DNA from: a virus
Direction: 5' to 3' (one strand)
DNA length: 64,000 nt
IMG/VR virus record: IMGVR_UViG_3300012983_000048
Shown: one piece after another, positions 8,529 to 36,247 of the stretch
Position numbering within the stretch: the first letter of the stretch is position 1
How the letters are laid out: each line of letters starts with the position of its first letter
Translations under genes and position numbers: made by a program
Notes under the pieces: model-generated
Seen by the model: the letters and a program-made list of their open reading frames with translations, nothing else
The model's database searches: none
Told to the model about the DNA's origin: nothing

Positions 8529-8536
8529 GAGTATGT

Positions 8537-8935: not shown

Positions 8936-8965
8936 ATAATTTATATAATAACTTAGAGGTAAATT

Positions 8966-16120: not shown

Positions 16121-16985
16121 TTTATCTATTATACCATTATATCATTGTAATATGAATTGTGATTATTGTTATTTGGGTAATATGAAAAATGATAAAACCA
16201 TATTATCATTAAAAACACTTGATGAAAAAATTGCTGAATTATTACACAATGGTTATGATTTTTCACATATTTCAATATATGGTGGTGAAATAAGTTTATT
16301 AGATAAAAAATATCTTGATAATCTAATATATTTAATTAGAAAATGGGAAATAAATGTAACAACAAATTTGACAAATGATTGGATTATAGATTATTGTAAA
16401 AATAATAATATTCATATAAATGTATCATTAAATGAGGAAAGAAGCAATTATGAATATGTTTTAAAAAAAATAAAAAACATTGATTGTTCAATAACATCTG
16501 TTGTTCTTCCATCATTATTAGAAAAAGATATTAATAGTGTGTTAGAATTTTATAATTTGCTTGGTAAAAACGTTTATTTTTTGGAGTATAACCCGTCAAT
16601 ATATTGTAATAAGTATGATATATCAACAAAAGATTTTATTATATTTTTAAAGAATATTATAAATGAATATAATAAGGGTGACTATTGTTTTGATATAGAA
16701 AATATGAAATATTTAAATGATGATGAATACAATCCAACACAAAGTGGGTTTGTATTTATATTGCCAAATGGAAATTATGGGACAGTTGAATATAAAGATT
16801 CAATAGAACATTTAGTTGAGTTTGAATCAATCAATGAGTGGGAAAAGTATATTGTTAAAGAAAGAAAAGATTATTTAAAAAATTGTTGTTTATGTGAATT
16901 TTTTGATAAGTGTAAAGCAGAGCATTTAAAAACATTTTCAAAACCTTATTGCTCTGGTTTATATGATATTATTAAAAATAAATAA
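16101..16985 (+). CDS. radical SAM protein with short Cys tail
   Basis: CNMNCDYC at aa 16-23. IYGGEISLL. C-terminal CCLCEFFDKCKAEH..YCSG. Confidence 0.65.
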   Translation: MNTKNLNLSIIPLYHCNMNCDYCYLGNMKNDKTILSLKTLDEKIAELLHNGYDFSHISIYGGEISLLDKKYLDNLIYLIRKWEINVTTNLTNDWIIDYCKNNNIHINVSLNEERSNYEYVLKKIKNIDCSITSVVLPSLLEKDINSVLEFYNLLGKNVYFLEYNPSIYCNKYDISTKDFIIFLKNIINEYNKGDYCFDIENMKYLNDDEYNPTQSGFVFILPNGNYGTVEYKDSIEHLVEFESINEWEKYIVKERKDYLKNCCLCEFFDKCKAEHLKTFSKPYCSGLYDIIKNK

Positions 16986-19503: not shown

Positions 19504-20403
19504 ATGAGCATCATTGATAGAATTAAAATAGCATCAACAAGTATTGATTTATCTTGTAGTAATTTACCAACAGCAGTAAAATTGGAATTATCTGGTGTTT
19601 GCAATCATAAATGTTATTATTGTGTTGTTCCAACATTAAAAGGTTTGAAGAAGTTTATGCCTATTGATGTGGTTAATAAAACAATTGAAGAAATTAGAAG
19701 ATTAAATATAAAAGAAATTGGTTTATTTCATATGGGTGAGGGAACTTTACATCCACAATTTTGTGAAATAATTGATATAATACTTAATGGTTGTAATTCA
19801 AAGTTGTTTATAACAACTAATGGAACAAGAATAGATGAATTAAAATATTTGGTAAAAAATAACATACAATCAATTAAATTTTCATTAAATGGGTATAATA
19901 AAGAAACACACTTAAAAGCAACAGGTGTTGATACATTTGATAAAATAATAGAAAATATAAAATTGCTTATTAAATATAGAAATGATATAATATCATCAAC
20001 AGAAATATCTGCATCATCAATCTTCTACAATAATACAGAACAAGATGATTTTGTTGATAAAATGTCAAAAATTGTTGATAATTATTATTTTACTGAGATA
20101 TATTCTCATGCTGATAAAGTTATAAACAAATACATAGATTTAACAAATAATCCAAGAATTATTAATGGATTGTGTGGAAATATACCATGCTATGGTATGT
20201 ATAATTTATGTCATATAAAGACAAATGGTGATGTAAATTTGTGTAGGTGGGGAGTGGATGATGAGTTTGTTATTGGTAATATTATGGAAACTCCATTGGA
20301 TGAACTATGGTTTTCTGAAAAAGCAATGAATTTGAGAAATGAATCACTTGCAGGTAAATTAAAAACATGTAACATTTGCACGGGTATAAAAAATGGAATA
20401 TAA
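19504..20403 (+). CDS. radical SAM/SPASM-like protein
   Basis: CNHKCYYC. HMGEGTLHP. C-terminal CGNIPCYG..CHIKTNGDVNLCRWG..CNICTG. Confidence 0.65.
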   Translation: MSIIDRIKIASTSIDLSCSNLPTAVKLELSGVCNHKCYYCVVPTLKGLKKFMPIDVVNKTIEEIRRLNIKEIGLFHMGEGTLHPQFCEIIDIILNGCNSKLFITTNGTRIDELKYLVKNNIQSIKFSLNGYNKETHLKATGVDTFDKIIENIKLLIKYRNDIISSTEISASSIFYNNTEQDDFVDKMSKIVDNYYFTEIYSHADKVINKYIDLTNNPRIINGLCGNIPCYGMYNLCHIKTNGDVNLCRWGVDDEFVIGNIMETPLDELWFSEKAMNLRNESLAGKLKTCNICTGIKNGI

Positions 20404-22334: not shown

Positions 22335-23027
22335 ATGATTGAAAAATATGACGAACAGCAATTAAAAGAATTATTAAATGGTGAAGATATTGATATCAAT
22401 TTTTCTGATTCTATTTCAGAAGAAGATTTGGTCAAATCATTATCATATATATATGATTATGAAAATTCTTTAGATATTATTCCAAATATAAGAGTTTTAT
22501 TAAAGGGAATTAATATTGATAAATTATCGGTTGCAATTAAATACTCCTTAGATAGAGAAGATTTAAAAGATCCATTAATGTTATTAAATATTATGAATTT
22601 GATTAAAAGTGGATTAAAACTTAATGAATATTTCTTTAAAGATGAAAACATTTATATTTCATCTATTACTGATTTGTTAAATTTGAAATTAAAAATTAAA
22701 AATGAACTAGAAGCATTTATTCAAAAAATGAGTATTCATTTTATTGCATTGTTTAAATCATATAACAAATTAACATTTACTCCATTAGATAAACACATTC
22801 AATTACCTAACATTTATAGAAATTTGTTTTTATCAAGTGATTTATTAACATTATCTGGTATATTTTCATTGAGTAAACCATTTAATACTGATGAATGTGT
22901 TTATATTGAAAATTCTTGTACCATTATATCTCAATTATTAATGAAGAGTTCAATTGGTATTAGTTTATTGAGTGATTTTTTAAGGAATGAAGATGACAAT
23001 AGAAGTAGGGAAGAAGATAACATATAA
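22335..23027 (+). CDS. hypothetical protein
   Basis: 230 aa with RBS AGAGG. No motif recognised. Confidence 0.45.
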   Translation: MIEKYDEQQLKELLNGEDIDINFSDSISEEDLVKSLSYIYDYENSLDIIPNIRVLLKGINIDKLSVAIKYSLDREDLKDPLMLLNIMNLIKSGLKLNEYFFKDENIYISSITDLLNLKLKIKNELEAFIQKMSIHFIALFKSYNKLTFTPLDKHIQLPNIYRNLFLSSDLLTLSGIFSLSKPFNTDECVYIENSCTIISQLLMKSSIGISLLSDFLRNEDDNRSREEDNI

Positions 23028-23595
23028 AGATTTGGCAGATAAAATATATGAATTAATAATCAATAAATGTGATAATATTGATAAAACTATTCCTATAAAT
23101 GGTCAAACATATACAATATCTTCAACAAGTAAAACAAAATGTACATTAACTATTAATGATAATAAGCTTGTTCCTATAAGTGCATCAGTTGTTAAAACAC
23201 AACTTGATTCATTTTTATCTTCAAGGGGTATAAAATCAAAAGAAAATGAAGTTATTACATTTAAAGGTATGATGAATTTTTATGCAAATATCTCATCCTT
23301 TTTATCTGCAAAGATGGTTTTGGTTGGATCAAGTTTTAGGGGTGAAAAATATGTAATTTATAATGCAAGTGCAACTAATTATACAAGTGTTCAAACTGCA
23401 TTAAAAGATAAGAATTATACAAAAGCACAAATAGAAACAGATGTTAATTCATTATTAAATGCAATTAACTCAACATCAAAAGTATTTTATCCCGCAACAA
23501 CTATTACTTATACATGTTCATCAAGTAGTTCAAGTTCATCAAGTAGTTCTTGTTCATCAAGTAGTTCAATGTTTATAGCATATATGGAAATATAA
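22987..23595 (+). CDS. hypothetical protein with C-terminal poly-Ser/Cys tract
   Basis: 202 aa ending TCSSSSSSSSSSSCSSSSSMFIAYMEI. The N-terminus ITYKDLADKIYELIINKCDN is paralogous to the next ORF. An alternative start MTIEVG lies at 22993. Confidence 0.45.
   Translation: MKMTIEVGKKITYKDLADKIYELIINKCDNIDKTIPINGQTYTISSTSKTKCTLTINDNKLVPISASVVKTQLDSFLSSRGIKSKENEVITFKGMMNFYANISSFLSAKMVLVGSSFRGEKYVIYNASATNYTSVQTALKDKNYTKAQIETDVNSLLNAINSTSKVFYPATTITYTCSSSSSSSSSSSCSSSSSMFIAYMEI
23521..23570 (+). repeat. coding TCA/AGT serine-codon microsatellite (tcatcaagtagttcaagttcatcaagtagttcttgttcatcaagtagttca)
   Basis: A 16-17-nt unit tcatcaagtagttc(a/t) repeated about 3 times. Encodes the Ser18 tract with two Cys. 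Confidence 0.6.
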
Positions 23596-24161
23596 TGATA
23601 AGTGGAAATATAACATATAAAAATATTACAGATAAAATCCTTGCTTTTATCAATAATAATTGTCAAAATGTTGGTAGTAAATATGATAGTATGGATGCAT
23701 GTTTTAAATCATATGATACAGGAAATTTTAAAATTCCGGGTTCTAAAAATGCACTAATAAGATTTTATTTAACCAATAATAAGGTTGAAAGAAAAGAAAC
23801 AAGTAATGTTAATAGTGATTTTGAGAACTTTTTAAAGAATATTGGTGTTTATAATAAATTGAATCAACAAATATTAGATGGAGAATTATATCATTTGATT
23901 AATAATATGGTTGGGTTTTGTATAGAAAATTTAAAATTTTCTATAAGTCAATATTCATCAAAGAAATATCTAATATATACAGGTGGAGTATTATCACTAC
24001 CCACTTCATTATACCATACAATTGGTGATGAAAAAACAGACAGAATTGATGCTAAAGATGTCAATGATATCTTTACTATTATTATGGATAAGTTACATAA
24101 TAAAATTAGAGTCATCCCTGTTGAATATACTGCTTCTTTAAAAGATCCATATACAGAATAG
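23595..24161 (+). CDS. hypothetical protein (paralog of ORF 22987, without the poly-Ser tail)
   Basis: MISGNITYKNITDKILAFINNNCQN aligns with MKMTIEVGKKITYKDLADKIYELIINKCDN. TAATG overlap with the upstream gene. Confidence 0.45.
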   Translation: MISGNITYKNITDKILAFINNNCQNVGSKYDSMDACFKSYDTGNFKIPGSKNALIRFYLTNNKVERKETSNVNSDFENFLKNIGVYNKLNQQILDGELYHLINNMVGFCIENLKFSISQYSSKKYLIYTGGVLSLPTSLYHTIGDEKTDRIDAKDVNDIFTIIMDKLHNKIRVIPVEYTASLKDPYTE

Positions 24162-24223
24162 ATAAAGATTAAATATTGTCATTAATATTAAATTATTATA
24201 TAATATCTCAAAAGGAGAAATAT

Positions 24224-25105
24224 ATGGTATGTAAACCTGTTTATGAATTTTTACTTTGGGATAATTGTAATAATAATTGTAAATTTTGTTTTCAAAGAAA
24301 GAATGGAATTATTCTGTCTCCATTGAATAAAATAAAATCTTTAAATTGTGTGTTAGAATTTTTAGATTCTAATGATTATGTAAATGGCAGTCATGTTTTA
24401 TTAGTTGGTGGTGAAATTTTTGATGAATCTAACCTTTTGATTATTAATGATTACGTAAATTTTTTTGAGAAAATTGTTGATAAAATGAACAGCAACAGTA
24501 TTGATTTATTATACATCAATACAAATTTATTGTATAACAATATGGGAATTTTAAATAAATTATTATCTCTTATTGATTATGATAACTTATGGGATAGGTT
24601 AAAATTTACAACATCATATGACTTAGAAGGTAGATTCTCAACAAAAGAAAAAGAAACCTTATTTTTGACAAATCTTAAATATGTAAAAAATACATATCCA
24701 AAATGTAATATAGTAGTCAACACAATATTAACAAAACAAACATGTGAAAAAATTTTAAACAATGTATTTAATCCAAAAGATTTTTGTGATGAATATAATT
24801 GTGATATAAATCTTATACCATATATTGTTTATACAGAAGAATTATCAGCAACAAGAGAACAAATATTTTCAACCTTAATTAAAGTTAATGAATTAATACC
24901 AAATTATTTTAATAGATATGTTGATAATTTTAGTTTAAAACAGGATAAATTATTATACAAGTATGATAATAAAAAACAATCTTTAACATTTGTATCATGT
25001 GATAATATGGAATGTGGTCATTCACAAAATTTTAAATTATATTCTAGTGATAACAGATGTTTTATATGTGATTTAATAGAATTATCTAAATTGTTTGGAG
25101 AATAA
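24224..25105 (+). CDS. radical SAM protein, sub-family C (1 of 4; motif at extreme N-terminus)
   Basis: AAGGAG 6 nt before ATG at 24224. MVCKPVYEFLLWDNCNNNCKFCFQ. LVGGEIFDE. C-terminal CDNMECGHSQN..CFICD. Confidence 0.65.
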   Translation: MVCKPVYEFLLWDNCNNNCKFCFQRKNGIILSPLNKIKSLNCVLEFLDSNDYVNGSHVLLVGGEIFDESNLLIINDYVNFFEKIVDKMNSNSIDLLYINTNLLYNNMGILNKLLSLIDYDNLWDRLKFTTSYDLEGRFSTKEKETLFLTNLKYVKNTYPKCNIVVNTILTKQTCEKILNNVFNPKDFCDEYNCDINLIPYIVYTEELSATREQIFSTLIKVNELIPNYFNRYVDNFSLKQDKLLYKYDNKKQSLTFVSCDNMECGHSQNFKLYSSDNRCFICDLIELSKLFGE

Positions 25106-25106
25106 G

Positions 25107-26024
25107 ATGAATAACTTTATACAATATGAATTATGGAAAGATTGTTCAAATGGTTGTAAATTCTGCTTTAATAAAGGACAAAAAGATTTAGATAAAATTG
25201 AATCATTAAATTTTGTAATTGATAAGTTAGATGATACAGAAGTTAATGAGTATAATGAAATAGGATTTATTGGTGGTGAGTTTTTTGATAGTCAATTGGA
25301 TAATAAGAATGTAAGACAATTGTTTTATAGATTATTTGATAAATGTATTGACAAAATTAAAAATAATAAAATTAATAAATTGTATATAACAACTGCTTTA
25401 TTGTTTGATATGAATAAACATTTGATACCATTTTTAAATTATTTAAATGATAAAGGTGTATTGGAAAATGTTTTACTTTGTACATCATATGATTTGAAAT
25501 ATAGATTTCATACTAGTGATAGAAAACATATGTGGGAATCTAATATGAAATTATTAAATTATGTATTTCCAAAATTAAGATTGCATACAGAAACAATTGT
25601 TTCTGGATTCTTTATTGAGTCAGTATTGAATGGTGAGTTTAGTATAACAGATTTTTGTAAAGAATATAATACACACATTGATTATATTGAACCCGGTTCT
25701 GGATTTTATTATTATGATAAGAAAGAATGTTCAAAAGATATGCCAGATTTCTTTCCTACAAAAGATAGGTTTATAGAATTTTTATACAAAGTTGCAATAG
25801 AAAATAGAGAAATAGATTTAGATACATTTATATCACCTAATGTTAGGTCTGATAAGATATATTGTAATTATAATGGTAAACGATATATAATGTCTAATAG
25901 AAGAAAAACTAATATGACAATATCTTTTACTGATATGGATGTAAAATATGAAACTGGTTTATTGGATTCTAATGATAAGATGTTAGAAATAGTTAAACAA
26001 GTAAAACAAATGTGTGGTGAATAA
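25107..26024 (+). CDS. radical SAM protein, sub-family C (2 of 4)
   Basis: GGAG then ATG at 25107 (the track's TTG at 25095 is less likely). MNNFIQYELWKDCSNGCKFCFNKG. FIGGEFFDS. Confidence 0.6.
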   Translation: MNNFIQYELWKDCSNGCKFCFNKGQKDLDKIESLNFVIDKLDDTEVNEYNEIGFIGGEFFDSQLDNKNVRQLFYRLFDKCIDKIKNNKINKLYITTALLFDMNKHLIPFLNYLNDKGVLENVLLCTSYDLKYRFHTSDRKHMWESNMKLLNYVFPKLRLHTETIVSGFFIESVLNGEFSITDFCKEYNTHIDYIEPGSGFYYYDKKECSKDMPDFFPTKDRFIEFLYKVAIENREIDLDTFISPNVRSDKIYCNYNGKRYIMSNRRKTNMTISFTDMDVKYETGLLDSNDKMLEIVKQVKQMCGE

Positions 26025-26025
26025 A

Positions 26026-27036
26026 ATGGATAAACATATAACTATTGTCTTAACTAATAAATGTAATTTAAAATGCAAACATTGTTTTGCAATCAGAAAT
26101 ACCACATCAATGTCAATGGATATATTGGAAAAAACAATTACATATCTAATTAATGAGGCAAATAACAATCCAAGTAATAGATATTTAATTGAATTTTTTG
26201 GTGGAGAGATTGGTTTATATGACCCAAATATACTATCTATTATGATAGATTACATGAGAGATAATGTTATTAATAATAATGTTGAAATATATGCACAATC
26301 AAATTTAGTATATAATTTAACAGATGAATGGTTAAATTTATTCAAAAAAATGGATTATTTGGATACATCATATGATTATTCTATTAGATTCTCAAATGAA
26401 CAACAAAGAGAATTATGGTTTAATAATGTTAGAAAAATAACATCTAATGGTATAGAATTGTCTTGTGTCATTACTATTACAAAAGATGTGGTAGAAAATT
26501 TAACACCCAGAGCATTATTTGATATAATGTTAGGATTGGGTATTAAAAAAATAGAATTAGAAAGGTTATTCCCACCATTAAAACCAATGGTAGAATATGA
26601 TAATGGTAATATTGTAGCAACAAACAGAGATGTTGATAAATGGATGTTTGATGCTTATCTTTTGTATGAAAAATTAAAGGATGTTGGTGTATATGTTGAA
26701 ACATTTAATTGTATGGAAGAATCAATATGTGGTAATAATTATTATGAGCATAGTAGGTGTTGCCAAGAAAACAATTTAACATTTTTACCAAATGGTGATG
26801 TATCACAATGTTTTGTAACATCAGTTAAACCATTTTTCAATATATTAAACCCAAATAATAAAAATATGGACATATACAATGAAAATGTTTTATTTGAGAA
26901 GAAATTAAATGATGGTTGTAGAGATTGTCCATATTTAAAATATTGTAGGGGTGATTGTTGTATGATGAAATGGGATTCAACTGGTTGTCCTACACCAAAA
27001 TTAATTTATGAATATCTTTTGACCAAGGGAGAATAA
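26026..27036 (+). CDS. radical SAM/SPASM-like protein, sub-family B
   Basis: ATG at 26026 just after the upstream stop. CNLKCKHC. FFGGEIGLYD. CMEESICGNNYYEHSRCCQEN..GCRDCPYLKYCRGDCCMMKWDSTGCPTP. Confidence 0.7.
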   Translation: MDKHITIVLTNKCNLKCKHCFAIRNTTSMSMDILEKTITYLINEANNNPSNRYLIEFFGGEIGLYDPNILSIMIDYMRDNVINNNVEIYAQSNLVYNLTDEWLNLFKKMDYLDTSYDYSIRFSNEQQRELWFNNVRKITSNGIELSCVITITKDVVENLTPRALFDIMLGLGIKKIELERLFPPLKPMVEYDNGNIVATNRDVDKWMFDAYLLYEKLKDVGVYVETFNCMEESICGNNYYEHSRCCQENNLTFLPNGDVSQCFVTSVKPFFNILNPNNKNMDIYNENVLFEKKLNDGCRDCPYLKYCRGDCCMMKWDSTGCPTPKLIYEYLLTKGE

Positions 27037-27716
27037 TGTTTTTTAAAAATTGTCCATTTTGTAATGAAAATGTTGATTATGTATATAATTCAGATGATAA
27101 ATTATATACTATAAAATGCAATGGTTGTTCAAAAAATGGAATAATTGTGTCTATTTCAAATAATGATTTAACAGAATTACAAAATAAATGGAATAAGAGA
27201 GTATTTGATGATGTGTTATTAAATGATACAGAATATAGTATAAAAATGTTATCATTTTTTAATGGAACATTAAAAAACAAAGAAGATATATCAATATTTA
27301 GAACCGATAAGTATCATAAAGAATTTGATTCATTTAATATATCAGAAGATATATTTGGTTATATGGTTATGCCAAATGGAGATGTTATAATTTGTGATGA
27401 TGAACACTCAAAAGAATTATTAAAATATTTGGGTATTGATGATGAGTTAAATACAGATGAAATAATAAGTATTGCAGTATCATGTGGTATAATTAGAATT
27501 TCTAAACAAGCAAAATGTTTAATGTTTGATTTAGTTCCTAATAAAATAAATAAAACCCAAATAACATCATTGATTAAATTTTTGGTGGAAAATAGTGATA
27601 AATTAAATTATATAAAAACATTTTGTGTATATAAAAATGGTGGAACATGTGCTAGAGATATAGAAGTATTAGATACATTAAATGATTTAATATTATATTT
27701 AGATGGGATAAAATGA
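27036..27716 (+). CDS. Cys4 zinc-ribbon protein, hypothetical
   Basis: N-terminus MFFKNCPFCNE..(15 aa)..CNGCSKNG (CxxC-x17-CxxC). Remainder uncharacterised. Embedded between radical-SAM genes. Confidence 0.45.
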   Translation: MFFKNCPFCNENVDYVYNSDDKLYTIKCNGCSKNGIIVSISNNDLTELQNKWNKRVFDDVLLNDTEYSIKMLSFFNGTLKNKEDISIFRTDKYHKEFDSFNISEDIFGYMVMPNGDVIICDDEHSKELLKYLGIDDELNTDEIISIAVSCGIIRISKQAKCLMFDLVPNKINKTQITSLIKFLVENSDKLNYIKTFCVYKNGGTCARDIEVLDTLNDLILYLDGIK

Positions 27717-27717
27717 T

Positions 27718-28662
27718 ATGATAGAAAATAATTTTCAGCATTGTTGCCAATATGGTGTATGGCCAAATTGTTGTAATAATTGTGATTTTTGTTTGAGAGA
27801 AGAAAGAGAATTTCTTACTAAAAAATTACAATTAAGAAATTTAGATATGATAAAGAAAAATATTGATGTTTTGGATTGGAAGAATAAATTTAGTTATGGT
27901 ATATCTTTATTGGGTGGTGAATTATATTATATTAAAGACAAAGAACTACAAGAATCATTTTTAGAATTAATTGATATAATCATTGAAAAAATTCTCAAAG
28001 TATCTACAAATCCTGGTTGCAGATATTCTACTGTAACAAATGGATTATATGAACCAACTTTTTTATATAAAGTTATTGATAAAATTGTTGATGCTGTGGG
28101 TGTTGGTAAAATTGATGTAAATTTTTCATATGATTTTAAATATAGATATAAAAGTGAAGAAGATTCCAAATTGGTATTAAAGAACATTAATGATTTCCAT
28201 AATAGATATAATTATTGTGTTGGGGTTCAAATGATTTTAACACAGTATTTAATTAATATGTGGAAAGATGGTAAATTTGATGTAAATGAATTTATGAATA
28301 ATGAAATTCCAGGCAATATGTTGTGTTTATTATATCCACATCCAATTAAAACTGGAAAACCATTAGATGATTTTTTCTTTAATAGAGATGATTTCTTGGA
28401 GTTTATTATGTATTTAAAAGAAGAACGATATGAAGTATATGAATCATTCTTACATTCAACTAAGAATTCTTGTTCTTTTAAATATACAGGTTTGAAAGGA
28501 AAAAATTGGTCAAATGATCCATATGAACAACCAGTATTAACTGATGGAAAGGAAATAATAAACGAAGAATGTGGTCATTCAATATTATATAAATGTTATT
28601 CTGATTGTGATAACTGTATGTTATGTGATTTAATGTTATTAGATGGTGAGGTGTATTTATGA
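27718..28662 (+). CDS. radical SAM protein, sub-family C (3 of 4)
   Basis: CCQYGVWPNCCNNCDFCLRE (Cx3Cx2C plus two extra Cys). LLGGELYYI. C-terminal CGHSILYKCYSDCDNCMLCD. Confidence 0.6.
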   Translation: MIENNFQHCCQYGVWPNCCNNCDFCLREEREFLTKKLQLRNLDMIKKNIDVLDWKNKFSYGISLLGGELYYIKDKELQESFLELIDIIIEKILKVSTNPGCRYSTVTNGLYEPTFLYKVIDKIVDAVGVGKIDVNFSYDFKYRYKSEEDSKLVLKNINDFHNRYNYCVGVQMILTQYLINMWKDGKFDVNEFMNNEIPGNMLCLLYPHPIKTGKPLDDFFFNRDDFLEFIMYLKEERYEVYESFLHSTKNSCSFKYTGLKGKNWSNDPYEQPVLTDGKEIINEECGHSILYKCYSDCDNCMLCDLMLLDGEVYL

Positions 28663-29636
28663 GAGGAAAACAATTGCAATTTGAACTTTGGCAAGAGTGT
28701 AATAGTAGATGTAAGTTCTGTTATTTAGCACATGATAATTGTTATACATCAGATAAAATCAAAATAGATTCTATAAAGATGGCATATGATAAAATATCTG
28801 ATTTATCATTATATCCAGAATATTCTACTATATCATATTTGGGTGGTGAATTTTTTCAAGGTCAAATGAAATCAAAAGAAGTAAAAGAAGAGTTTATGAA
28901 CCTTATAGATAAAACCGTTTGGTTGTTAAATAATGAATATATAGATACTGTGTGGATATATGCAACATTAACTATTGGTGATCAAAAAGATTTATATGAA
29001 ACCCTTGAAAAATTTAAGGGTCATAAAGGTAATCTTTGGATATTAACATCATATGATACAATTGGTAGATTTCATACAAAAAAGATGGAAGATAATTGGT
29101 CATATCATATGAAACAAATTCATAAATTATATCCAGATATTTTATTTAATATTACAACAATATTAACAGGGGATTTAATTGACAAGTATTTAAATGATGA
29201 GATTAATTTTGAAAAGATGATGGAAGAATACCATACAAAATTTTTCTTTAAACAATGTGGTAATCCATATATACATAAAACAAAACAAGATATGAATAAT
29301 GTTTTGCCAAATTTCTTTCCTACTAGACAAAAGTTTTTAGATTTTCTTATTAAATTTAAACAGCAAGAATCACCAGAAATGTGGGATAAATTATTTAATA
29401 TTTATTATAGAGCAGATAATTTATATAGAAACTTTAATGATGAAAATGAACATATGGTTGAGTTTGTAAGAGATAAAGACACTTCCATTGAACATTCAAA
29501 ATATTTAGAAGATCCAAGTTTATTAAATACAGTAATATTACCATGTGGTCATATGAATTCATATCAAGCATATATTGATACAGATGATTGTGTTTTATGT
29601 GATAGACAGATGATAGAGGAAATGTGTGGTGACTAA
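28659..29636 (+). CDS. radical SAM protein, sub-family C (4 of 4)
   Basis: LQFELWQECNSRCKFCYLAH. YLGGEFFQG. C-terminal LPCGHMNSYQAYIDTDDCVLCD. Confidence 0.6.
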   Translation: MRGKQLQFELWQECNSRCKFCYLAHDNCYTSDKIKIDSIKMAYDKISDLSLYPEYSTISYLGGEFFQGQMKSKEVKEEFMNLIDKTVWLLNNEYIDTVWIYATLTIGDQKDLYETLEKFKGHKGNLWILTSYDTIGRFHTKKMEDNWSYHMKQIHKLYPDILFNITTILTGDLIDKYLNDEINFEKMMEEYHTKFFFKQCGNPYIHKTKQDMNNVLPNFFPTRQKFLDFLIKFKQQESPEMWDKLFNIYYRADNLYRNFNDENEHMVEFVRDKDTSIEHSKYLEDPSLLNTVILPCGHMNSYQAYIDTDDCVLCDRQMIEEMCGD

Positions 29637-30153
29637 TATTGTTAATAAAGATGATATTGTAAAATTGGTTGTAAGTCCAATTAATTTGGATGAAATACAA
29701 ATTTTAAATAATAGAGATATATATATTAAACCAAATGAATCAATTGAATATAACACAGGTATATACATAGATTGTGGTGGAAATGAAAATGTATTTGTTA
29801 AACACGATATAAAAGAATATCCAATGATTATTATTGAGTGTTGCAGATATTGTGATGATTCATCAAATAATTGTGAAATTATATTACCAATTACAAATAT
29901 TTCTAATAATGAAATTATTATCAAAGAAAATACACGAATTGCAATTATATATAATACTTTAAAACAAAAATTTGATAATAAAGAATCAAAAAGAGTTGTG
30001 TATGATAATGATGATATAGTTGTATTGGATAATGGTGAAAATAGAATTAAAAATTTAGAATTTACTATATCTTCTGAAAATGAATCAAGATTAATAATAG
30101 ATTTTGAAAAGGATATATATAAAAATCCATTAATGTATAATAATGTTGAATAA
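29626..30153 (+). CDS. hypothetical protein (start uncertain, GTG)
   Basis: 175-aa ORF. Only a GTG start at 29626 overlaps the upstream gene. Contains a CCRYCDD..NNC Cys patch. No confident motif. Confidence 0.35.
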   Translation: MVTNIVNKDDIVKLVVSPINLDEIQILNNRDIYIKPNESIEYNTGIYIDCGGNENVFVKHDIKEYPMIIIECCRYCDDSSNNCEIILPITNISNNEIIIKENTRIAIIYNTLKQKFDNKESKRVVYDNDDIVVLDNGENRIKNLEFTISSENESRLIIDFEKDIYKNPLMYNNVE

Positions 30154-30163
30154 AGGATAAAAT

Positions 30164-31177
30164 ATGAATAATATAGTAGAATGGTGGTTAAATGCAGGAA
30201 GATTAAATGATATGGAAATGTTTATTCTTTCCAATACAAGAAGTGAAGATGCTATTTTATATTCTGATAAAGAATATAAAAAAATGGAATCTGAATATTT
30301 TAATAGAATGCCTTTTAGTAACATATCATCTAAAACACATAATATCATGTTTGATACTTGTGCTACAAATCATATTAAAAATTTATTCAAAAAATATGTT
30401 AATGAAGATACATTAGTAATAACATCAATGAATGAACATAATAATGTAAAAGAATTGGTTAATAATTGTAATAATAAACTAATATTAAATCATTATAAAG
30501 ATATTATCACATTAAATGTTGATACTATTGTAACAGAGTGTAAAAAATATAAGAAAGCATTTATATATATTATTGGAACACAAATATCTTCTGGTGAGAT
30601 AACACCACAATTATTTTATGAAACATTGAAGAAACAATTGGTAATTAATAATATTGAACACATTATGGTTTTGGATGATGTTCAAGGAATGTTTATGGTT
30701 CCAAGAGATTATTCAATATTTGATTATGTGGTTGGAACTGCTCATGCATTAATTGAGGGTTATGATATGGGTATTTTAATTAGTAGAAATAATGATTTTG
30801 GAATTAAAGCAATAAATTGGGGTTATGATTATTTAGAATTGTTAGATATAATGTTAAAAAGAAAGGATTTATTGAATAGTTTTACACAAGTAATGACACA
30901 ATATTTTCATTATGATTTGATTAAATATGGATTTTCATTATTTCAAAATACTGCACCACATATATTTGCAATAAAGACAAATGGTATGGAATTTACAGAA
31001 GAAATGCATTCCTTATTAGATAACTATTGTATAAGATTAGAGGGTATTGGTAATGATTATGTTCCAAATATATTCATAAGAATGAGAGCACAACAATATA
31101 TAAAATTTCCGGAGACATGTATTGATGGATTAAAAGTTCTACATAATTTGTTGGAAGAGATAAAGGATAGTAAATAA
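30164..31177 (+). CDS. PLP-fold protein resembling class-V aminotransferase/cysteine-desulfurase, apparently lacking the Schiff-base Lys
   Basis: FDTCATNHIKNLFKKYVNEDTLVITSMNEHNNV resembles NifS/IscS TSGATE..N..IITS..EH.SV. The region that aligns to S-G-H-K of desulfurases reads GTAHALIEG (Lys replaced by Ala). Alignment done from memory only. Confidence 0.3.
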   Translation: MNNIVEWWLNAGRLNDMEMFILSNTRSEDAILYSDKEYKKMESEYFNRMPFSNISSKTHNIMFDTCATNHIKNLFKKYVNEDTLVITSMNEHNNVKELVNNCNNKLILNHYKDIITLNVDTIVTECKKYKKAFIYIIGTQISSGEITPQLFYETLKKQLVINNIEHIMVLDDVQGMFMVPRDYSIFDYVVGTAHALIEGYDMGILISRNNDFGIKAINWGYDYLELLDIMLKRKDLLNSFTQVMTQYFHYDLIKYGFSLFQNTAPHIFAIKTNGMEFTEEMHSLLDNYCIRLEGIGNDYVPNIFIRMRAQQYIKFPETCIDGLKVLHNLLEEIKDSK

Positions 31178-31178
31178 T

Positions 31179-31994
31179 ATGGAAAATAAACAACAATTTA
31201 ATACTTGGAAATCATTGGTTGAAGATATAGAAATAAAAACTCAATTAGATTGTTTAAGAATAATTGAATTAAATATTTCTAATGTTTGTAATTTAAAATG
31301 CAGTTTCTGTCCTCAATCACATGGTTGGAAAACAAATAAAGAAATATTTATGGGATTACATACAGTTAAAGAGATATGCAAACAATTGAATGAAATTGAT
31401 TATAAAGGGTTTGTCTGTATTGCTGGGTGGGGAGAACCATCAACAAATCCAAATTTTTATGAAATTGTTGATATATTAAAATCTTTTAATCCACAGATTG
31501 TTACTAATGGAAAATTATTGGATAAAGATGTTTGGGAAAAAATAACAAAAATTGCACAAATAAAAGTATCTGTTCATGATTGGTCTAATATACAATGGTT
31601 TAAAAATAAATTCCAAAATACAAATGCTTGGTATAGAAATCATGATGTAAATAATCCACAAATGAATTTATATAATAGGGGTGGTTATTTAAATAAACCA
31701 ATAGAAAGAATATATAAAGAGTGTTATTTACCATTTTATAAAATTGCAATTGATGTTGATGGGAAATACATACAATGTGAAGCAGATTGGGAGTGTAAAT
31801 CTGAAACAGAAAATAGTATTTGGAATACACATATAGAAAATTATTTTGTCAATAAATGTGATATTGTTAGAGAAAAAATGTTATCAGAAAATAAAAGACA
31901 ATCATTTAATTGTTGTAAGGATTGTGACATTGATGGTAGATTATATGGTAAAAAATTTGTAGATTTTTGGATTAATAATGTTAAAGAGAAATGA
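31179..31994 (+). CDS. radical SAM protein (short, minimal Cys tail)
   Basis: ISNVCNLKCSFCPQSH at aa 33-48. CIAGWGEPSTNP. C-terminal SFNCCKDCDIDG. Confidence 0.65.
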   Translation: MENKQQFNTWKSLVEDIEIKTQLDCLRIIELNISNVCNLKCSFCPQSHGWKTNKEIFMGLHTVKEICKQLNEIDYKGFVCIAGWGEPSTNPNFYEIVDILKSFNPQIVTNGKLLDKDVWEKITKIAQIKVSVHDWSNIQWFKNKFQNTNAWYRNHDVNNPQMNLYNRGGYLNKPIERIYKECYLPFYKIAIDVDGKYIQCEADWECKSETENSIWNTHIENYFVNKCDIVREKMLSENKRQSFNCCKDCDIDGRLYGKKFVDFWINNVKEK

Positions 31995-32868
31995 ATATGT
32001 AAAGAAAATATATGGTTTGTCAGCACAAAATGAACCAGGTAATGATTGTGTTGTATCTTGTAATGTAAGACAATATCCAGATATGTATTATATATATGAG
32101 AAATTTGGTAATTATTTCAATGTAGAGAGTAATACATTCTTCTTATCAAATGGTTGTGAAAATGCCATTAAAAATGTTTTATTAGCAATTAAACCAAAAA
32201 CAATGTGTTGGTGTATCCCTACTTGGGGTATGATGGATGTTTATTGTGAGGCATTGGATATTAAACCATTAAAAAAAGAATTTAAATATGATAATATAAA
32301 ATCTGAATTTATTACACCAAATTTATCTGATATAAAGTGTGATTGTTTATATACAAATTGCGGATTTACAAATTATTTTAAATATAATTTTAACACAATG
32401 GAATTATATAACAGTAATTTTAATTATAATATTTGTGATATAACATATCAGAATATTGAACAAATGAAATCATCCATACAAACATTGAAACAAAATCCTA
32501 AAAATATTATCATTGGATCATTTGATAAATTGGTTGGGTGTGGGTTAAGACTTGGGTTTGCTATATATTCAAAAGAATTACATGATAGAATGTCATTACA
32601 AAGGGAACAATTTATAAATTCATGTGCATTTGAATGGTTTATGAATACTGATTTTAATATTAGTAAAAATCAATATATTTCTAAATTAAAGAATATAAAA
32701 AATATTCATACTATAAATGATAATTTTATAACAGTTGTTGGAAATATTGATACAACAATTCCATGTGTTCATTTTAATGTTGATGGTTATGATTTCACAA
32801 GATTTGGTATTCCAAATAATTATAATGAATATTCTGAATTAAAATATATCATTGAAAATGAGAAATAA
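31978..32868 (+). CDS. class I/II PLP aminotransferase, HisC-like
   Basis: IYGLSAQNEPGND resembles LdsNENPygp. YPDMYY..LSNGCENAI..CWCIPTWGMMDVYCEAL resembles YPD..GNGSdE.i..P.F.mY...a...G. GSFDKLVGCGLRLGFAIY resembles SLSKafgLAGLRiGYai, with a Lys present. Last gene of the plus-strand operon. Confidence 0.5.
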   Translation: MLKRNEYVKKIYGLSAQNEPGNDCVVSCNVRQYPDMYYIYEKFGNYFNVESNTFFLSNGCENAIKNVLLAIKPKTMCWCIPTWGMMDVYCEALDIKPLKKEFKYDNIKSEFITPNLSDIKCDCLYTNCGFTNYFKYNFNTMELYNSNFNYNICDITYQNIEQMKSSIQTLKQNPKNIIIGSFDKLVGCGLRLGFAIYSKELHDRMSLQREQFINSCAFEWFMNTDFNISKNQYISKLKNIKNIHTINDNFITVVGNIDTTIPCVHFNVDGYDFTRFGIPNNYNEYSELKYIIENEK

Positions 32869-33642
32869 TTATTTTGTTCTTCTCCAAACATTTATAACAT
32901 ATGCAGGTGGTTGAACTGTATCAGAGTTTCCATAAATTGGATTTGAACGAGAAGCATCAAATAGAGTTTGGGCATCATTTGAACCATTATCAACATCGTT
33001 ACCACCTCTCTTAATTCCAGAAGAACCATTATAAAAAGAACCTGTTTTATTCTGTGCCCAAACATGATATTCAAAACCACCAGTAATATTTGGTAATCCT
33101 GCATCTATTGTTGTATTGGCATTGCTTCCATCACCCGTCCATAGTGCTTTATTACTTGTAACTAATTCCCAAGTAGAGTTTGGGATTATAGTCATCATTG
33201 GGCATGTTGTTTGTGTTCCAAAATATAATGAACCAATTGGATATATTGTTTCCAATAATGTTAATATTTTACTTGAAAACATATTATCAAATTCAGATAA
33301 GTCTGGTTGAATAGAAACAATTTCATATCTTTTAATATAAGATATTGAATAATGTATATTAGATTCAATTTCATTTTCTAAAATAACTTTTAAACCATCT
33401 TCTGATAATGTATATAATGATGGTAAAATAATAGTATTTCCAATATTAACTGAAAGTATTTGATTTGGATAATCCAATTTAATTCCATCCAATGGTAATT
33501 CATTTGTATTATTACTTGTTAAACCATTTATAATATTAACTGATGCATATGATTTTGATTCAATTTCTGAATCAATATATTCTTCTATTTGATCTTTATT
33601 AATAGAACCTGCTACTATTTTACCACCATGTCTAATACTCAT
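32869..33642 (-). CDS. short tail fibre protein with C-terminal phage tail-collar-like domain
   Basis: N-terminus MSIRHGGKIVAG matches the other fibre paralogs. The C-terminus LWTGDGSNANTTIDAGLPNITGGFEYHVWAQ..NSDTVQPPAYVINVWRRT resembles the tail-collar (PF07484-like) ending tvrP..alnyiI. The stop abuts the convergent plus-strand stop (taa|tta). Confidence 0.55.
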   Translation of the reverse strand: MSIRHGGKIVAGSINKDQIEEYIDSEIESKSYASVNIINGLTSNNTNELPLDGIKLDYPNQILSVNIGNTIILPSLYTLSEDGLKVILENEIESNIHYSISYIKRYEIVSIQPDLSEFDNMFSSKILTLLETIYPIGSLYFGTQTTCPMMTIIPNSTWELVTSNKALWTGDGSNANTTIDAGLPNITGGFEYHVWAQNKTGSFYNGSSGIKRGGNDVDNGSNDAQTLFDASRSNPIYGNSDTVQPPAYVINVWRRTK

Positions 33643-33662
33643 TAAAAATCCTTATTTTTTGT

Positions 33663-34121
33663 TTATAAATTTGAAGTTGATTGTAGGTCATTAATTTCCT
33701 CAGGTAATGTATCTTCAATATTGATATATGGATTATCAGCACGAATTTCATCTTTCTTTGCTAACCAAGTGTTTTTAGCTTCAATGGTTCGTTCATCTGT
33801 TTCACCATAACGAGCTAATGCTTCATCATAATCAAGCTTTAAAGGGTCAGCTTGTTCTGTAAATAAAGATTGACGTGTTTGACGGATTTGCTCATTATAA
33901 ACTTCTACTGGAATATAAGTTTTAAGCAGGAACTCCCCTTGATAGTGTTCGTATTCGTCAACTGAGTGTTCCGTATCCTCAATGACTTCATCATAAACTA
34001 AACAAGGAAAATGGTCTTTCGGATTAAATGATATAGTTTTAGATACATTATCATAAGTAACTTCAACTTCTTTCTTTTCGCAAATTGCTATGATTTTATT
34101 GTCTTTAATTGCTTTAAACAT
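33663..34121 (-). CDS. hypothetical protein (possible fibre assembly/chaperone)
   Basis: 152-aa acidic protein directly downstream of the 708-aa fibre gene, 1-nt start/stop overlap. Confidence 0.4.
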   Translation of the reverse strand: MFKAIKDNKIIAICEKKEVEVTYDNVSKTISFNPKDHFPCLVYDEVIEDTEHSVDEYEHYQGEFLLKTYIPVEVYNEQIRQTRQSLFTEQADPLKLDYDEALARYGETDERTIEAKNTWLAKKDEIRADNPYINIEDTLPEEINDLQSTSNL

Positions 34122-36247
34122 TATTCTATTTCTCCTTCTGTGTAAATGAATCTGAAAACCTCAACGGTTGATATTGTTCCATTATATACCAAATACACTT
34201 CATCACCCTTTTTAACACGAACACTTACATCTGTCCCTCTAGAACCTAAAGTTCCCCCATCAGCAATATTGCTTGCACTTCTGTTTCTTAAATAAAAATA
34301 ATTTCCAGATGTTCCAACAAGTCTGGTATAATAATAACCACTTGCTGGTGCTATATAAGTCGCACCGTTAGCCCCTAAAGTCAAATCAATATATCTATTT
34401 GAAGGTGCTCCCAGTCCCGACAACCAAGATGTGTCGTTTCTGTCAACTGCTTGAAAGGTGGTTTTTAGTATGACTGATGTGATTTTGCCAGAATCAAGAG
34501 AAATAGAACCTATACTTATAGCCATACTAGTAAATAAATCTGATTTAAAATTATTTATTTTGATGTCATATCCTTGTGTAACTACACCTTCTGGATATAT
34601 AACAGAAAATGAATAATTTGGTCTGTTTGGACTAAATAGTAATAAACAATCACTTATCGAATAAGAACTGGCAAAAGTTCTAGTAATAACATTTTGAGAT
34701 ACATACTCAATATTTCTCAAAGTTCCGTCTGCATTTCTTCCGTTCGGAATTAAACCTTTAACACCTGGAAGTGCAAAGACTGTTGACCCGATATACCCAA
34801 ATCCATTAAATACTTGGTCTATGGAAGTTATTGTTCCTGAATTTCGTGACACAGAACAGATTGGAAAAGATAAATTTGTATGTGTTTCTGTTGAGTCAGA
34901 ATACCTACTTATAACATTTGTGTCCGTGTTGTAAATAAAACCACTAGTTGGTGCCGTCGTTCCTGATACCGAATAAGACCAAACCTCTGCTACTAATTCA
35001 GTACCACTAGAATTTACACAAATACCAAGTTGTGTGGAAGCTGAGCCATAGTTTCCAATACTCAAATCATTATTGATGTTAATAATATTCCCATTAGCAT
35101 CATATACTTTACTTCCAGCCTTTAAAGTCAATGTTCCATCAACTAATTCCAACTTAATATCCTGTGGAATTTCTGTAATACAATTAGTAATTTGATTTGT
35201 TGTTAAATGGTTTTTTGAAATTTCATCTAATTGTGTTTGAACATTACTTGATATACCAGATAAATGACTCAATTCAGTTGCAGTAACTGAAGATGTTGTT
35301 CCATATCCAGAATCATTAGTTATCAACACTTGATTCGCAGCTTGTCCAGAAACGTTCAGCGAAATGGTTGCTGACGACCATACATTGTCAGACGTTACAA
35401 CTACCCGTGTTGCATACATTCCATTCAATAGATTAATGAATCTAATCACACTCGTTGTTATCTGAACTAACGGAAACAGATACTCACCGAATTTGCAATA
35501 ACAGACCTTACCTGCATTATAAGCCGCTGATATTTCAGAATATGTTGTAGTATTATAAGTAGCTATAAAAACTTCTTTTGCAGAAACATCATTATCAAAA
35601 TCATTATCATCTGTGATATAACATATCCATTCAGGATGTTGATTTTCAATATCCTGTTCTTGATACTCTGATAATGTTCCAACCCAATCATAATTAACAA
35701 TTCCTTTATTTCTTTCAACTACACCATTTACTTGTAAATTATTATCATCATTGTATGAAATTGATGTATTATCAACAGTTGTTTCGGTATAGTTTGACAT
35801 TATAGAATCTATCAAATCCATATTTTGAATTGATAATCCTAATGATTGAATATTAATAGATGTTGGATAATTATCTATATTAGTAACAATACCAATCATT
35901 AATGCTTGAATATTATTTCTATCTGATACTGTTCCATATACATATCCAATATCACCTACTTTGATTCCTTCAACATCAAAATTTGGGTTGTAAGATGTTG
36001 ATACATTTGTGGATGCATATTGTTTCCATTGTTCATATGTCCAATTTCTTGTTCCAACTTTATATGCACCACTTGTTGAAAAGTTTGAAATAGCATTTTG
36101 AACAAACTCTGTATTTGCAATTTGTTTGCTATTATCTCCAACAGTTGCTGTTGGAACAGTTGGTGTTCCTGTAAATGATGTAGAATCTAATAATTTTTCT
36201 ACATCTGGCATTCCTGCTAATAAACTTGAACCATATTTAATTGACAT
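34121..36247 (-). CDS. large tail fibre / baseplate-associated protein
   Basis: 708 aa. N-terminus MSIKYGSSLLAGMPDVEKLL..TGTPTVPTATVGDNSKQIANTEFVQNAI is a fibre attachment-like signature. Long S/T/N-rich beta-rich body. Confidence 0.55.
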   Translation of the reverse strand: MSIKYGSSLLAGMPDVEKLLDSTSFTGTPTVPTATVGDNSKQIANTEFVQNAISNFSTSGAYKVGTRNWTYEQWKQYASTNVSTSYNPNFDVEGIKVGDIGYVYGTVSDRNNIQALMIGIVTNIDNYPTSINIQSLGLSIQNMDLIDSIMSNYTETTVDNTSISYNDDNNLQVNGVVERNKGIVNYDWVGTLSEYQEQDIENQHPEWICYITDDNDFDNDVSAKEVFIATYNTTTYSEISAAYNAGKVCYCKFGEYLFPLVQITTSVIRFINLLNGMYATRVVVTSDNVWSSATISLNVSGQAANQVLITNDSGYGTTSSVTATELSHLSGISSNVQTQLDEISKNHLTTNQITNCITEIPQDIKLELVDGTLTLKAGSKVYDANGNIININNDLSIGNYGSASTQLGICVNSSGTELVAEVWSYSVSGTTAPTSGFIYNTDTNVISRYSDSTETHTNLSFPICSVSRNSGTITSIDQVFNGFGYIGSTVFALPGVKGLIPNGRNADGTLRNIEYVSQNVITRTFASSYSISDCLLLFSPNRPNYSFSVIYPEGVVTQGYDIKINNFKSDLFTSMAISIGSISLDSGKITSVILKTTFQAVDRNDTSWLSGLGAPSNRYIDLTLGANGATYIAPASGYYYTRLVGTSGNYFYLRNRSASNIADGGTLGSRGTDVSVRVKKGDEVYLVYNGTISTVEVFRFIYTEGEIE

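Follow-up and report, generated by a model that had tools for sequence, protein, structure and literature searches.

The last radical-SAM gene of an operon in a jumbo phage is flanked by two genes of the PLP-dependent enzyme fold, and one of the two encoded proteins lacks the Schiff-base lysine. What does such a protein do, and does it act together with its neighbour? The window (the whole stretch of DNA that was analysed, 64,000 nucleotides of IMG/VR virus record IMGVR_UViG_3300012983_000048) comes from a low-GC jumbo phage and contains a 15-gene radical-SAM island. Three adjacent genes raise the question:

30164..31177, + strand: ORF-A, 337 aa, of the fold-type-I PLP fold (NifS/class-V-like) but lacking the Schiff-base lysine
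31179..31994, + strand: BtrN-like twitch/SPASM radical-SAM dehydrogenase, 271 aa, starting 1 nt past the ORF-A stop
31978..32868, + strand: ORF-B, 296 aa, a short class I/II PLP enzyme resembling HisC/CobD, its site intact

ORF-A and ORF-B are real genes, and both encode proteins with the fold-type-I PLP fold. The two reading frames lie where the initial annotation had placed them, and all peptide strings quoted in it are found in their translations.

Fold, family and cofactor pocket of ORF-A

As a single sequence, ORF-A has no match in Pfam, PHROGs, NCBIfam, PADLOC or the PDB (phmmer), nor is any match found by tblastn against 50,697 phage genomes. The predicted structure (AF2, pLDDT 95.5) has the large-domain/small-domain organization of the fold-type-I aminotransferases, and its Foldseek comparison with known folds gives a NifS-like match (E=5e-13). 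A profile built from 50 family sequences has one match only, the NifS-like 1ecx (E=0.013), which spans the EH and DxVQ motifs. The early description of ORF-A as an unusual class-V/NifS-like protein is thus borne out by profile and fold, and yet the gathering score of PF00266 is not reached by ORF-A and a single member of the 50 matches this family in a per-member Pfam scan (E=0.004).

Among 1.84 billion (1.84e9) protein representatives the family accounts for 238 matches at E<=1e-3, and its members occur in phage-like contigs only. The N-terminus forms a family-specific helical extension of 55 residues with a WW motif, and the long members, which were examined for domain fusions, carry uninformative extensions only. 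No description of the family or of the radical-SAM island was found in the literature on phage radical SAMs and lysine-less PLP proteins. ORF-A is the founder of a previously undescribed, small and discrete family.

The EH, D-x-V-Q and [ST]-x-H motifs of NifS/IscS/SufS (PF00266) are present in ORF-A in the same order and are accompanied by a probable C-terminal Arg, at 8-15% identity. The register against E. coli IscS, whose residues K206, C328 and H104 have described roles (PMC8300815), was taken from a weak hhalign alignment (E=0.05, probability 1%), which places H194 on H205, A195 on K206, H92 on H104, D171 on D180, Q174 on Q183 and T192 on S203; a motif-by-motif alignment made by hand agrees with it. 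The residue that follows [ST]-x-H is therefore Ala195 and not lysine. It is encoded at 30746-30748, next to H194 (30743-30745) and within GTAHALIEGY (30734-30763), whereas D171 is encoded at 30674-30676.

The Schiff-base column is occupied by residues other than Lys throughout the family. In 94 sequences its composition is A66/S19/V5/C3/G1 and in 214 full-length members A129/S57/V18/C4/N3/T2/G1, with Lys found in none of either set. As Lys is absent from this column in every relative examined, the Lys-to-Ala substitution that had been proposed for the single protein is confirmed, and it characterizes the family as a whole. The other positions of the pocket show the opposite pattern: among the 214 members D171 and H194 are found in 214, T192 in 213, H92 in 210 and R308 in 206, and position 174, aligned to a PLP ligand of IscS, is nearly invariant as Gln or His. 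As read from the alignment, the Asp, stacking His and Ser/Thr-x-His ligands of class V/NifS-like proteins are all present, and the retained pocket consists of the stacking His92, Asp171 at the pyridine nitrogen, Gln/His174 at O3', and the phosphate ligands Thr192 and His194. From its sequence pattern, R308 is probably the equivalent of IscS R354 and a putative α-carboxylate Arg.

In the 214 members every Lys or Cys column stays at or below 77%, no universally conserved Lys is found elsewhere in the protein, and the conservation of Cys columns reaches about 50% at most, so that the catalytic persulfide Cys on the mobile loop of a cysteine desulfurase (C328 in IscS) has no counterpart, while K206 of IscS is replaced by Ala, Ser or Val. 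The WW-motif extension and the exclusively phage-like range further set ORF-A apart from NifS/IscS/SufS. Lacking both the Schiff-base Lys and the catalytic Cys, ORF-A is neither a cysteine desulfurase nor a classical transaminase, and a role as Fe-S sulfur donor is ruled out for the same reason. A pseudogene or decaying gene is ruled out by the strong conservation across the family.

The core module around ORF-A

In related loci ORF-A is accompanied by a set of core genes; the genes listed below lie upstream of it in the window:

22335..23027, + strand: core protein of unassigned function, 230 aa, accompanying ORF-A in relatives by synteny; no Pfam or PHROG match
22987..23595, + strand: Ser/Cys-tailed protein, 202 aa, with the C-terminal end TCSSSSSSSSSSSCSSSSSMFIAYMEI; potential substrate of the module
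23595..24161, + strand: paralog of the N-terminal domain of the tail protein, 188 aa, without the Ser tail
24176..25105, + strand: core radical-SAM paralog 1, CNNNCKFC
25095..26024, + strand: core radical-SAM paralog 2, CSNGCKFC
27718..28662, + strand: core radical-SAM paralog 3, most highly conserved (relatives 50-73% identical), often adjoining ORF-A
28659..29636, + strand: core radical-SAM paralog 4, CNSRCKFC
29626..30153, + strand: ORF immediately upstream of ORF-A, 175 aa; absent from the related loci examined and without a significant family match

The tail protein is found in all 19 loci that bear the four core radical SAMs, and ORF-A in 18 of them; in the remaining one (L037) there is no ORF-A within 10 kb. 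Conversely, one ORF-A paralog (L016) has no radical-SAM neighbours. In two loci (L039 and L040) ORF-A paralogs stand in tandem, both copies being lysine-less. The Ser/Cys run of the tail protein comprises 20-35 residues at the C-terminus and, together with the terminal motif [FY]I[AVG]YM, is kept in every core locus. Searches by single proteins were less productive: the N-terminal domain of the tail protein found three close relatives only, and the 27718 protein alone recovered three loci only.

Among proteins of solved structure, the nearest relative of the four core radical SAMs is YydG (E=3.3e-8), the peptide epimerase of the epipeptide pathway, which acts on a ribosomal peptide; the viperins are close to them as well. 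The match to YydG is limited to the N-terminal 174 residues, and the phage paralogs possess a C-terminal CGH...CxxCD motif of their own; YydG is not known to have a PLP-fold partner or a substrate with a Ser/Cys run. On synteny, the tail protein is a candidate for the module's substrate. Against this role stands the resemblance of the core radical SAMs to viperins that modify nucleotides. The neighbours of ORF-A, namely radical SAMs of YydG type and the protein with the Ser/Cys tail, suggest the modification of a peptide or protein no less strongly than the hypermodification pathway proposed initially.

The ORF-B cassette and the question of pairing

ORF-B is HisC-like and keeps its lysine, as was first read from its signatures. 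K184 (codon 32527-32529, within GSFDKLVGCGLR at 32515-32550) and the site residues D154, Y157 and R191 show no variation across 38 sequences and align with HisC K214, D184, Y187 and R222. The match to PF00155 is a marginal pass (20.7 bits against a cutoff of 19.7), and 16 of the 38 family members are matched, the best at 7.8e-7. The family profile matches HisC (4.7e-5) and a CobD-like enzyme (9.9e-5), and the best 50 Foldseek matches of the model (pLDDT 93.9) are all of HisC/CobD type. Compared with HisC and CobD, ORF-B has the same fold and PLP-site Lys, Asp, Tyr and Arg, but it has some 60 residues fewer, as a phage gene it lies beside a radical-SAM dehydrogenase and not among his or cob genes, and its scores stay far below the equivalog cutoffs of both HisC (TIGR01141, 31.5 against 276.55 bits) and CobD (TIGR01140, 23.6 against 290.55 bits).

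The 31179 product matches BtrN (4m7s) over nearly its full length (phmmer, E=1.6e-12, residues 27-250 against 6-236). It has the CxxxCxxC motif (CNLKCSFC), NRGG, and four Cys aligned to BtrN positions 169, 187, 232 and 235, which we take to be the auxiliary-cluster ligands, and it is thus BtrN-like. BtrN oxidises DOIA to amino-DOI in a pathway that includes an aminotransferase (PMC9012708). By homology and gene linkage, the phage proteins could follow the same order as BtrN and BtrS/BtrR in the formation of butirosin 2-deoxystreptamine: the radical SAM would oxidise a secondary alcohol, probably of a small molecule, to a ketone, and ORF-B, with a normal Lys184 internal aldimine, would then turn the ketone into an amine. 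The butirosin aminotransferase belongs to the DegT/DnrJ/EryC1 family and not to the HisC-like family of ORF-B. Judged from its sequence, ORF-B may alternatively carry out CobD-type decarboxylase chemistry. ORF-B and its BtrN-like partner are in keeping with the proposal that an amino group is introduced by part of the operon.

The BtrN-like gene adjoins ORF-B in five of its seven contexts; in the other two (L021 and L023) ORF-B has no radical-SAM neighbour. In relatives the cassette is flanked by homologs of the gene at 18462 and of the following one:

19504..20403, + strand: SPASM radical-SAM gene, flanking the ORF-B/BtrN-like cassette in relatives L018, L019, L022 and L024

The same pair is carried by Synechococcus phage S-SCSM2R, in which a 299-aa PF00155 protein (1.6e-18) scores 35 bits against the ORF-B profile and there is no ORF-A within +/-7 kb. 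Apart from this cassette homolog, the sequenced-phage collection contains no match to the ORF-A or ORF-B family. ORF-B and the BtrN-like gene are therefore a mobile two-gene cassette, present also in an unrelated cyanophage.

Do ORF-A and ORF-B, then, act jointly around the terminal radical SAM on one amino moiety, for instance in DNA or nucleoside hypermodification? The three genes are tightly packed in the window (a 1-nt gap and a 17-nt overlap), and no promoter or terminator signal above chance is found between them. Synteny, however, largely refutes the joint model and leaves it highly improbable. ORF-B and the BtrN-like gene are missing from 19 of 19 ORF-A core loci, with ORF-B never within 10 kb, and ORF-A is missing from all ORF-B contexts other than this window (six of seven). 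In relatives the cassette sits elsewhere, between the homologs of 18462 and 19504, and in the cyanophage it stands without ORF-A. As the two do not co-occur outside this window, a functional A-B pair is rejected; the terminal radical-SAM gene, which had been seen as flanked by a pair, belongs with ORF-B and not with ORF-A. The HAD-like hydrolase at 9926, which had been invoked for the same pathway, rests on a sub-threshold NT5C match (17.9 against 24.8 bits).

Possible roles of ORF-A

Our best explanation is that two unrelated PLP-fold genes from different modules have come to lie side by side through genome rearrangement; taken as a whole, with the chemistry proposed for both modules, it is quite possible rather than probable. 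From the conservation of the pocket we infer that ORF-A most likely binds PLP or PMP non-covalently. By analogy with ColD, E1 and SpnQ, it would use the cofactor as an exchangeable co-substrate without an internal aldimine, and its substrate would be a carbonyl or amine intermediate delivered by the four YydG/viperin-like radical SAMs, which would themselves work on the protein with the long C-terminal Ser/Cys run. In its most specific form, in which ORF-A is a new class of PLP/PMP protein without internal aldimine that remodels the poly-Ser/Cys tail of a phage protein together with four radical SAMs, the proposal is speculative and rather unlikely. In this form, the Ser/Cys residues could first undergo oxidation or dehydration by radical chemistry and then be aminated with the help of PMP, or take part in some other exchange between carbonyl and amine.

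ColD, E1 and SpnQ are lysine-less PMP-dependent 3-dehydratases with a catalytic His at the Lys position (PMC8987622). The likeness to ORF-A lies in fold type I, in the missing Schiff-base Lys and, if our reading of its cofactor use is correct, in a non-covalent PMP co-substrate; in E1 and SpnQ, Fe-S and radical chemistry takes part as well. On the other hand, these enzymes belong to the sugar-aminotransferase branch (DegT/DnrJ/EryC1), whereas ORF-A is class-V-like with a non-catalytic Ala, Ser or Val. A ColD-type dehydratase is ruled out for ORF-A, as His never occurs at the Lys position in the 214 members and the nearest structures are of class V. Because Ala, Ser and Val offer no obvious substitute base, a PMP half-reaction would need another base, perhaps the invariant Y183, or water.

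Alternatively, ORF-A could be a catalytically dead pseudoenzyme or scaffold that holds the radical SAMs or their substrate, or helps in Fe-S loading, with no PLP chemistry, which we regard as a real if doubtful possibility. There is a natural precedent in the IscS of Archaeoglobus fulgidus, in which Asp replaces the PLP lysine, desulfurase activity is absent and the role in Fe-S assembly is structural (PMC7585200). Both proteins combine a NifS fold, the nearest one to ORF-A, with natural loss of the lysine and stand alongside Fe-S proteins, of which the phage must mature 15; the lack of an evident substitute base in ORF-A also agrees with a scaffold. The archaeal protein, however, relies on a conserved Cys as ligand and on IscU as partner. 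Neither has a counterpart here: a conserved Cys is missing from ORF-A, and the operon proteins gave no Pfam match to NifU/IscU and revealed no gene resembling IscU, NifU or SufE. Moreover, the residues under the strictest conservation in ORF-A, a feature that distinguishes it from the A. fulgidus protein, are the PLP-ligand-aligned D171, T192, H194 and H92, which is hard to square with a cofactor-free scaffold.

A distinctly unlikely alternative is that the PLP on ORF-A serves a partner radical SAM as a radical-stabilising handle, as if the chemistry of lysine-2,3-aminomutase were split between two proteins. The external aldimine would form directly between a free amino acid and the non-covalent PLP, and the neighbouring radical SAM would abstract the hydrogen atom, so that the acid/base lysine would not be needed. 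This could account for the loss of the Lys alone while Asp171 as electron sink, His92 as stacking residue and the putative α-carboxylate Arg308 are kept, and for the linkage of ORF-A to radical SAMs nearly everywhere, including the most divergent locus (L017) and excepting the orphan L016. Known aminomutases, however, carry PLP and the radical-SAM cluster on one polypeptide and keep the PLP lysine, which counts against a split system; no gene fusions were found among the long family members, and the model presupposes contact between ORF-A and a radical-SAM protein.

Least probable of all is a Schiff-base amine supplied in trans, with a partner or substrate Lys or an exogenous amine entering the pocket in the manner of the chemical rescue of Lys-to-Ala aminotransferase mutants: the aligned pocket is intact save for the Lys and the tandem paralogs suggest heterodimers, but both tandem copies are lysine-less, no Lys is universally conserved in the family, and the conserved C-terminus of the tail protein has none.

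Few features of PLP enzymology are as conserved as the Schiff-base lysine. In the ORF-A family, which is under clear purifying selection, the other aligned cofactor ligands are all kept and the lysine never is, which would make the family a natural experiment on an aldimine-free PLP scaffold; the family being small, cheap to express and provided with obvious partners, the question is directly testable. Through the ORF-B cassette, which gut jumbo phages share with a marine cyanophage, an amino-modified metabolite or surface structure could plausibly be made. If the most specific form of the proposal for ORF-A were true, jumbo phages would possess a previously unknown radical-SAM-plus-PLP system of post-translational modification.

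The ORF-A family and its cofactor pocket

ORF-A (30164-31177), the class-V-like protein of the two, is a PLP-fold protein invisible to sequence libraries: there was no match in Pfam, PHROGs, NCBIfam, PADLOC or PDB (phmmer), none by tblastn against 50,697 phage genomes, and a literature search found no paper describing the family. The PLP fold proposed in the initial annotation is recovered by both profile and structure searches, the 50-sequence profile giving a single PDB match, the Thermotoga NifS-like protein 1ecx (E=0.013), with 'EH' and 'D-x-V-Q' both inside the aligned region. ORF-A has 93 homologs when these are clustered at 90%; when 1.84 billion representatives were searched exhaustively with an HMM, only 238 reached E<=1e-3, 211 of them E<=1e-10. 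This is a small family with sharp limits, without gradation into canonical class-V enzymes.

In IscS, PLP is anchored by the lysine K206, the persulfide is carried by the cysteine C328, and H104 probably serves as a base (PMC8300815). When the ORF-A family is aligned with E. coli IscS by hhalign, H92 corresponds to H104, D171 to D180, Q174 to Q183, T192 to S203, H194 to H205 and A195 to K206; the alignment is statistically weak because its target is a single sequence, and its register agrees with that derived from motif logic. All 214 full-length members carry D171 and H194; T192 is kept by 213 of them, H92 by 210 and R308 by 206, and at position 174 the residue is either Gln or His. Ala (129), Ser (57), Val (18), Cys (4), Asn (3), Thr (2) and Gly (1) occupy the Schiff-base column, and Lys never does, so that the Lys-to-Ala substitution first read from the single sequence holds for a proper alignment. 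Elsewhere in these 214 sequences no Lys or Cys column exceeds 77%; therefore both a relocated Schiff-base lysine and a desulfurase cysteine are ruled out. Because the few invariant residues align to cofactor ligands while mean column identity is only 30%, conservation argues for a pocket that is still in use.

The core module around ORF-A

The window is low-GC DNA (22-32%). Its relatives are uncultured viral contigs of 38-314 kb and a few MAG contigs whose taxonomies disagree with one another, which makes the source an uncultured jumbo phage. The genes are arranged as follows:

~9926 to 32868, + strand: long operon of 28 ORFs
from 32869 onward, - strand: tail-fibre-like genes

The N-terminal CxxxCxxC radical-SAM motif occurs in 15 of the 28 operon ORFs, which include the paralog block 10941-16985, the SPASM enzymes 19504 and 26014 and four core paralogs; this island (9926-32868, +) is partly conserved, in rearranged form, in other jumbo-phage contigs (L006, L018, L022). 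A 1462-aa ORF (4140-8528, +) lies immediately upstream. Of the HAD-like hydrolase initially placed at the operon start (9926-10558, +), there remains only a sub-threshold Pfam match to NT5C (5'-nucleotidase; E=0.003, 17.9 vs 24.8 bits), which spans only the final 40 residues. The ATG of ORF-A is preceded at a spacing of 6 nt by a Shine-Dalgarno-like AAGGA, its stop is followed after 1 nt by the radical-SAM gene 31179-31994, and the latter overlaps ORF-B (31978-32868), the HisC-like gene, by 17 nt. ORF-A and ORF-B are both real ORFs as given in the initial annotation, and their translations contain all the peptides quoted there. Around these three genes promoter-like and terminator-like matches showed no excess over shuffled expectation.

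ORF-A and ORF-B had been regarded as a pair, a view that synteny does not bear out. When ORF-A loci were compared with all 28 operon proteins, the constant neighbours were homologs of 22335, 22987, 23595 and the radical-SAM paralogs 24176, 25095, 27718 and 28659, and no homologs of ORF-B or 31179 were found. Across about 19 independent loci with a 27718 homolog (ORF-A loci plus loci added from other searches), ORF-A is present in 18/19, the 22987-type protein in 19/19 and ORF-B in 0/19. The most compact core (L039, L040, L041) has the order 22335, the Ser/Cys-tailed protein, 23595, a set of radical SAMs (three or four) and ORF-A; the exceptions are L037, where the module lacks ORF-A, and L016, an orphan second ORF-A paralog. 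Some phages carry two paralogs (L001, L039, L040 and L015/L016, the last on the 314-kb IMGVR_UViG_3300013426_000013), all without Lys; the second copy stands in tandem within the module, as for the two Lys-less copies of L039 and L040, or, in L016, at a distance of 23 kb with no radical-SAM genes around it. Conversely, of seven distinct ORF-B contexts five have an adjacent BtrN-like gene and four a 19504-like SPASM radical SAM, and ORF-A is nearby in the window only. Homologs of 18462 and 19504 flank the ORF-B cassette in relatives; in the window the cassette has been relocated to the operon end, beside ORF-A.

Among solved structures, YydG, a peptide epimerase, comes closest to the profile of the four core radical-SAM paralogs (E=3.3e-8), followed by viperins (~1e-5). 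The ~200-aa protein encoded by 22987-23595 (+) has homologs in L001, L003-L015, L034, L035, L037 and L039-L041, and such a Ser/Cys-tailed protein occurs in every locus with core radical SAMs, in two copies in some; 23595-24161 is its tail-less paralog, and neither product matches Pfam or PHROG. Members of the family close with a stretch of 20-35 Ser/Cys and then the conserved heptapeptide [MTSL][FY]I[AVG]YM[DK]I at the C-terminus; these two features make the protein an obvious candidate substrate of the core module, and it seems to represent a novel type of precursor or substrate. Within the module, beside this gene, lies 26014-27036 (+), a radical-SAM/SPASM gene whose product could be a Ser/Cys-to-formylglycine type oxidase because of a nearly full-length match to TIGR03942 (anaerobic sulfatase-maturase; E=1.2e-14, below cutoff). 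The Lar-like restriction-alleviation zinc ribbon encoded by 27036-27716 (+; PHROG 599, 8.5e-7; PF14354, 1.8e-4, below cutoff) is flanked on both sides by radical-SAM genes.

ORF-B and the BtrN-like gene

ORF-B is an ordinary though divergent PLP enzyme of the HisC/CobD branch. It marginally passes the PF00155 cutoff (20.7 vs 19.7 bits), and 16 of 38 relatives match this model as well. Its family profile matches plant HisC at 4.7e-5 and a CobD-like decarboxylase at 9.9e-5. The best 50 PDB matches of its AlphaFold model (pLDDT 93.9) are all of the histidinol-phosphate aminotransferase or threonine-phosphate decarboxylase type (E~1e-13, TM~0.7). D154, Y157, K184 and R191, invariant across the family, align with D184, Y187, K214 and R222 of E. 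coli HisC, which upholds the initial assignment of a HisC-like protein with its lysine. HisC proper and CobD proper are both ruled out, ORF-B being ~60 residues shorter than HisC and scoring far under both equivalog cutoffs.

The neighbouring 31179 matches BtrN over nearly its whole length (E=1.6e-12). The two have in common the radical-SAM motif and an NRGG motif (around R152 in BtrN), and four Cys line up with BtrN 169, 187, 232 and 235, the auxiliary-cluster ligands. In butirosin biosynthesis BtrN oxidises 2-deoxy-scyllo-inosamine to an amino-ketone, and the pathway also has an aminotransferase (PMC9012708). An independent replicate of the gene pair is present in the T4-like Synechococcus phage S-SCSM2R, which carries, immediately after the gene for a 299-aa 'histidinol-phosphate/aromatic aminotransferase' (PF00155, 1.6e-18), a BtrN-like gene (8e-20); the 299-aa protein scores 35 bits with the ORF-B family profile, above any PDB HisC. 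Because of the BtrN match, the aminotransferase in BtrN's pathway and this replicate, the two genes most likely form a mobile cassette, in which 31179 would oxidise an alcohol to a ketone and ORF-B would transaminate that ketone. ORF-B could conceivably act as a CobD-like decarboxylase instead.

The short HisC-like gene, with or without a BtrN-like gene, recurs near tail-fibre or baseplate genes, as in S-SCSM2R (L026, PQ898602, 6070-7684), L023 (of the L021/L023 contexts) and the window (tail-fibre-like genes at 32869-36247, -); this may hint at surface-structure modification. Campylobacter phage CP20 (L025, MK408758, Firehammervirus) has a run of four radical-SAM genes, one BtrN-like (5162-9771), only distantly related to the window's array; the first is directly followed by a gene annotated 'glycine amidinotransferase', for which there is no Pfam match at E<=0.01.

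Possible roles of ORF-A

Confidence is high in the anatomy of ORF-A: its fold, conserved residues aligned to PLP ligands, the lack of both Lys and Cys, and its close linkage with radical-SAM genes. Tentatively, ORF-A would bind PLP or PMP non-covalently, without an internal aldimine, as an exchangeable co-substrate, and would act on an intermediate made by the radical SAMs. Natural precedents that likewise lack the lysine are the PMP-using ColD, E1 and SpnQ, although these carry a catalytic His at the lysine position (PMC8987622) and ORF-A does not. The chief competing reading is a scaffold without catalytic activity, on the pattern of A. fulgidus IscS, in which Asp replaces the PLP Lys (PMC7585200); that protein, however, relies on a conserved Cys together with an IscU partner, both absent for ORF-A, and a scaffold leaves unexplained why conservation in ORF-A is highest at the PLP-ligand positions. 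Less likely are a split role resembling that of an aminomutase and provision of the lysine in trans.

ORF-B and the BtrN-like gene both belong to known kinds of enzyme. What is new is ORF-A, a fold-type-I PLP scaffold from which the Schiff-base lysine has been lost family-wide.
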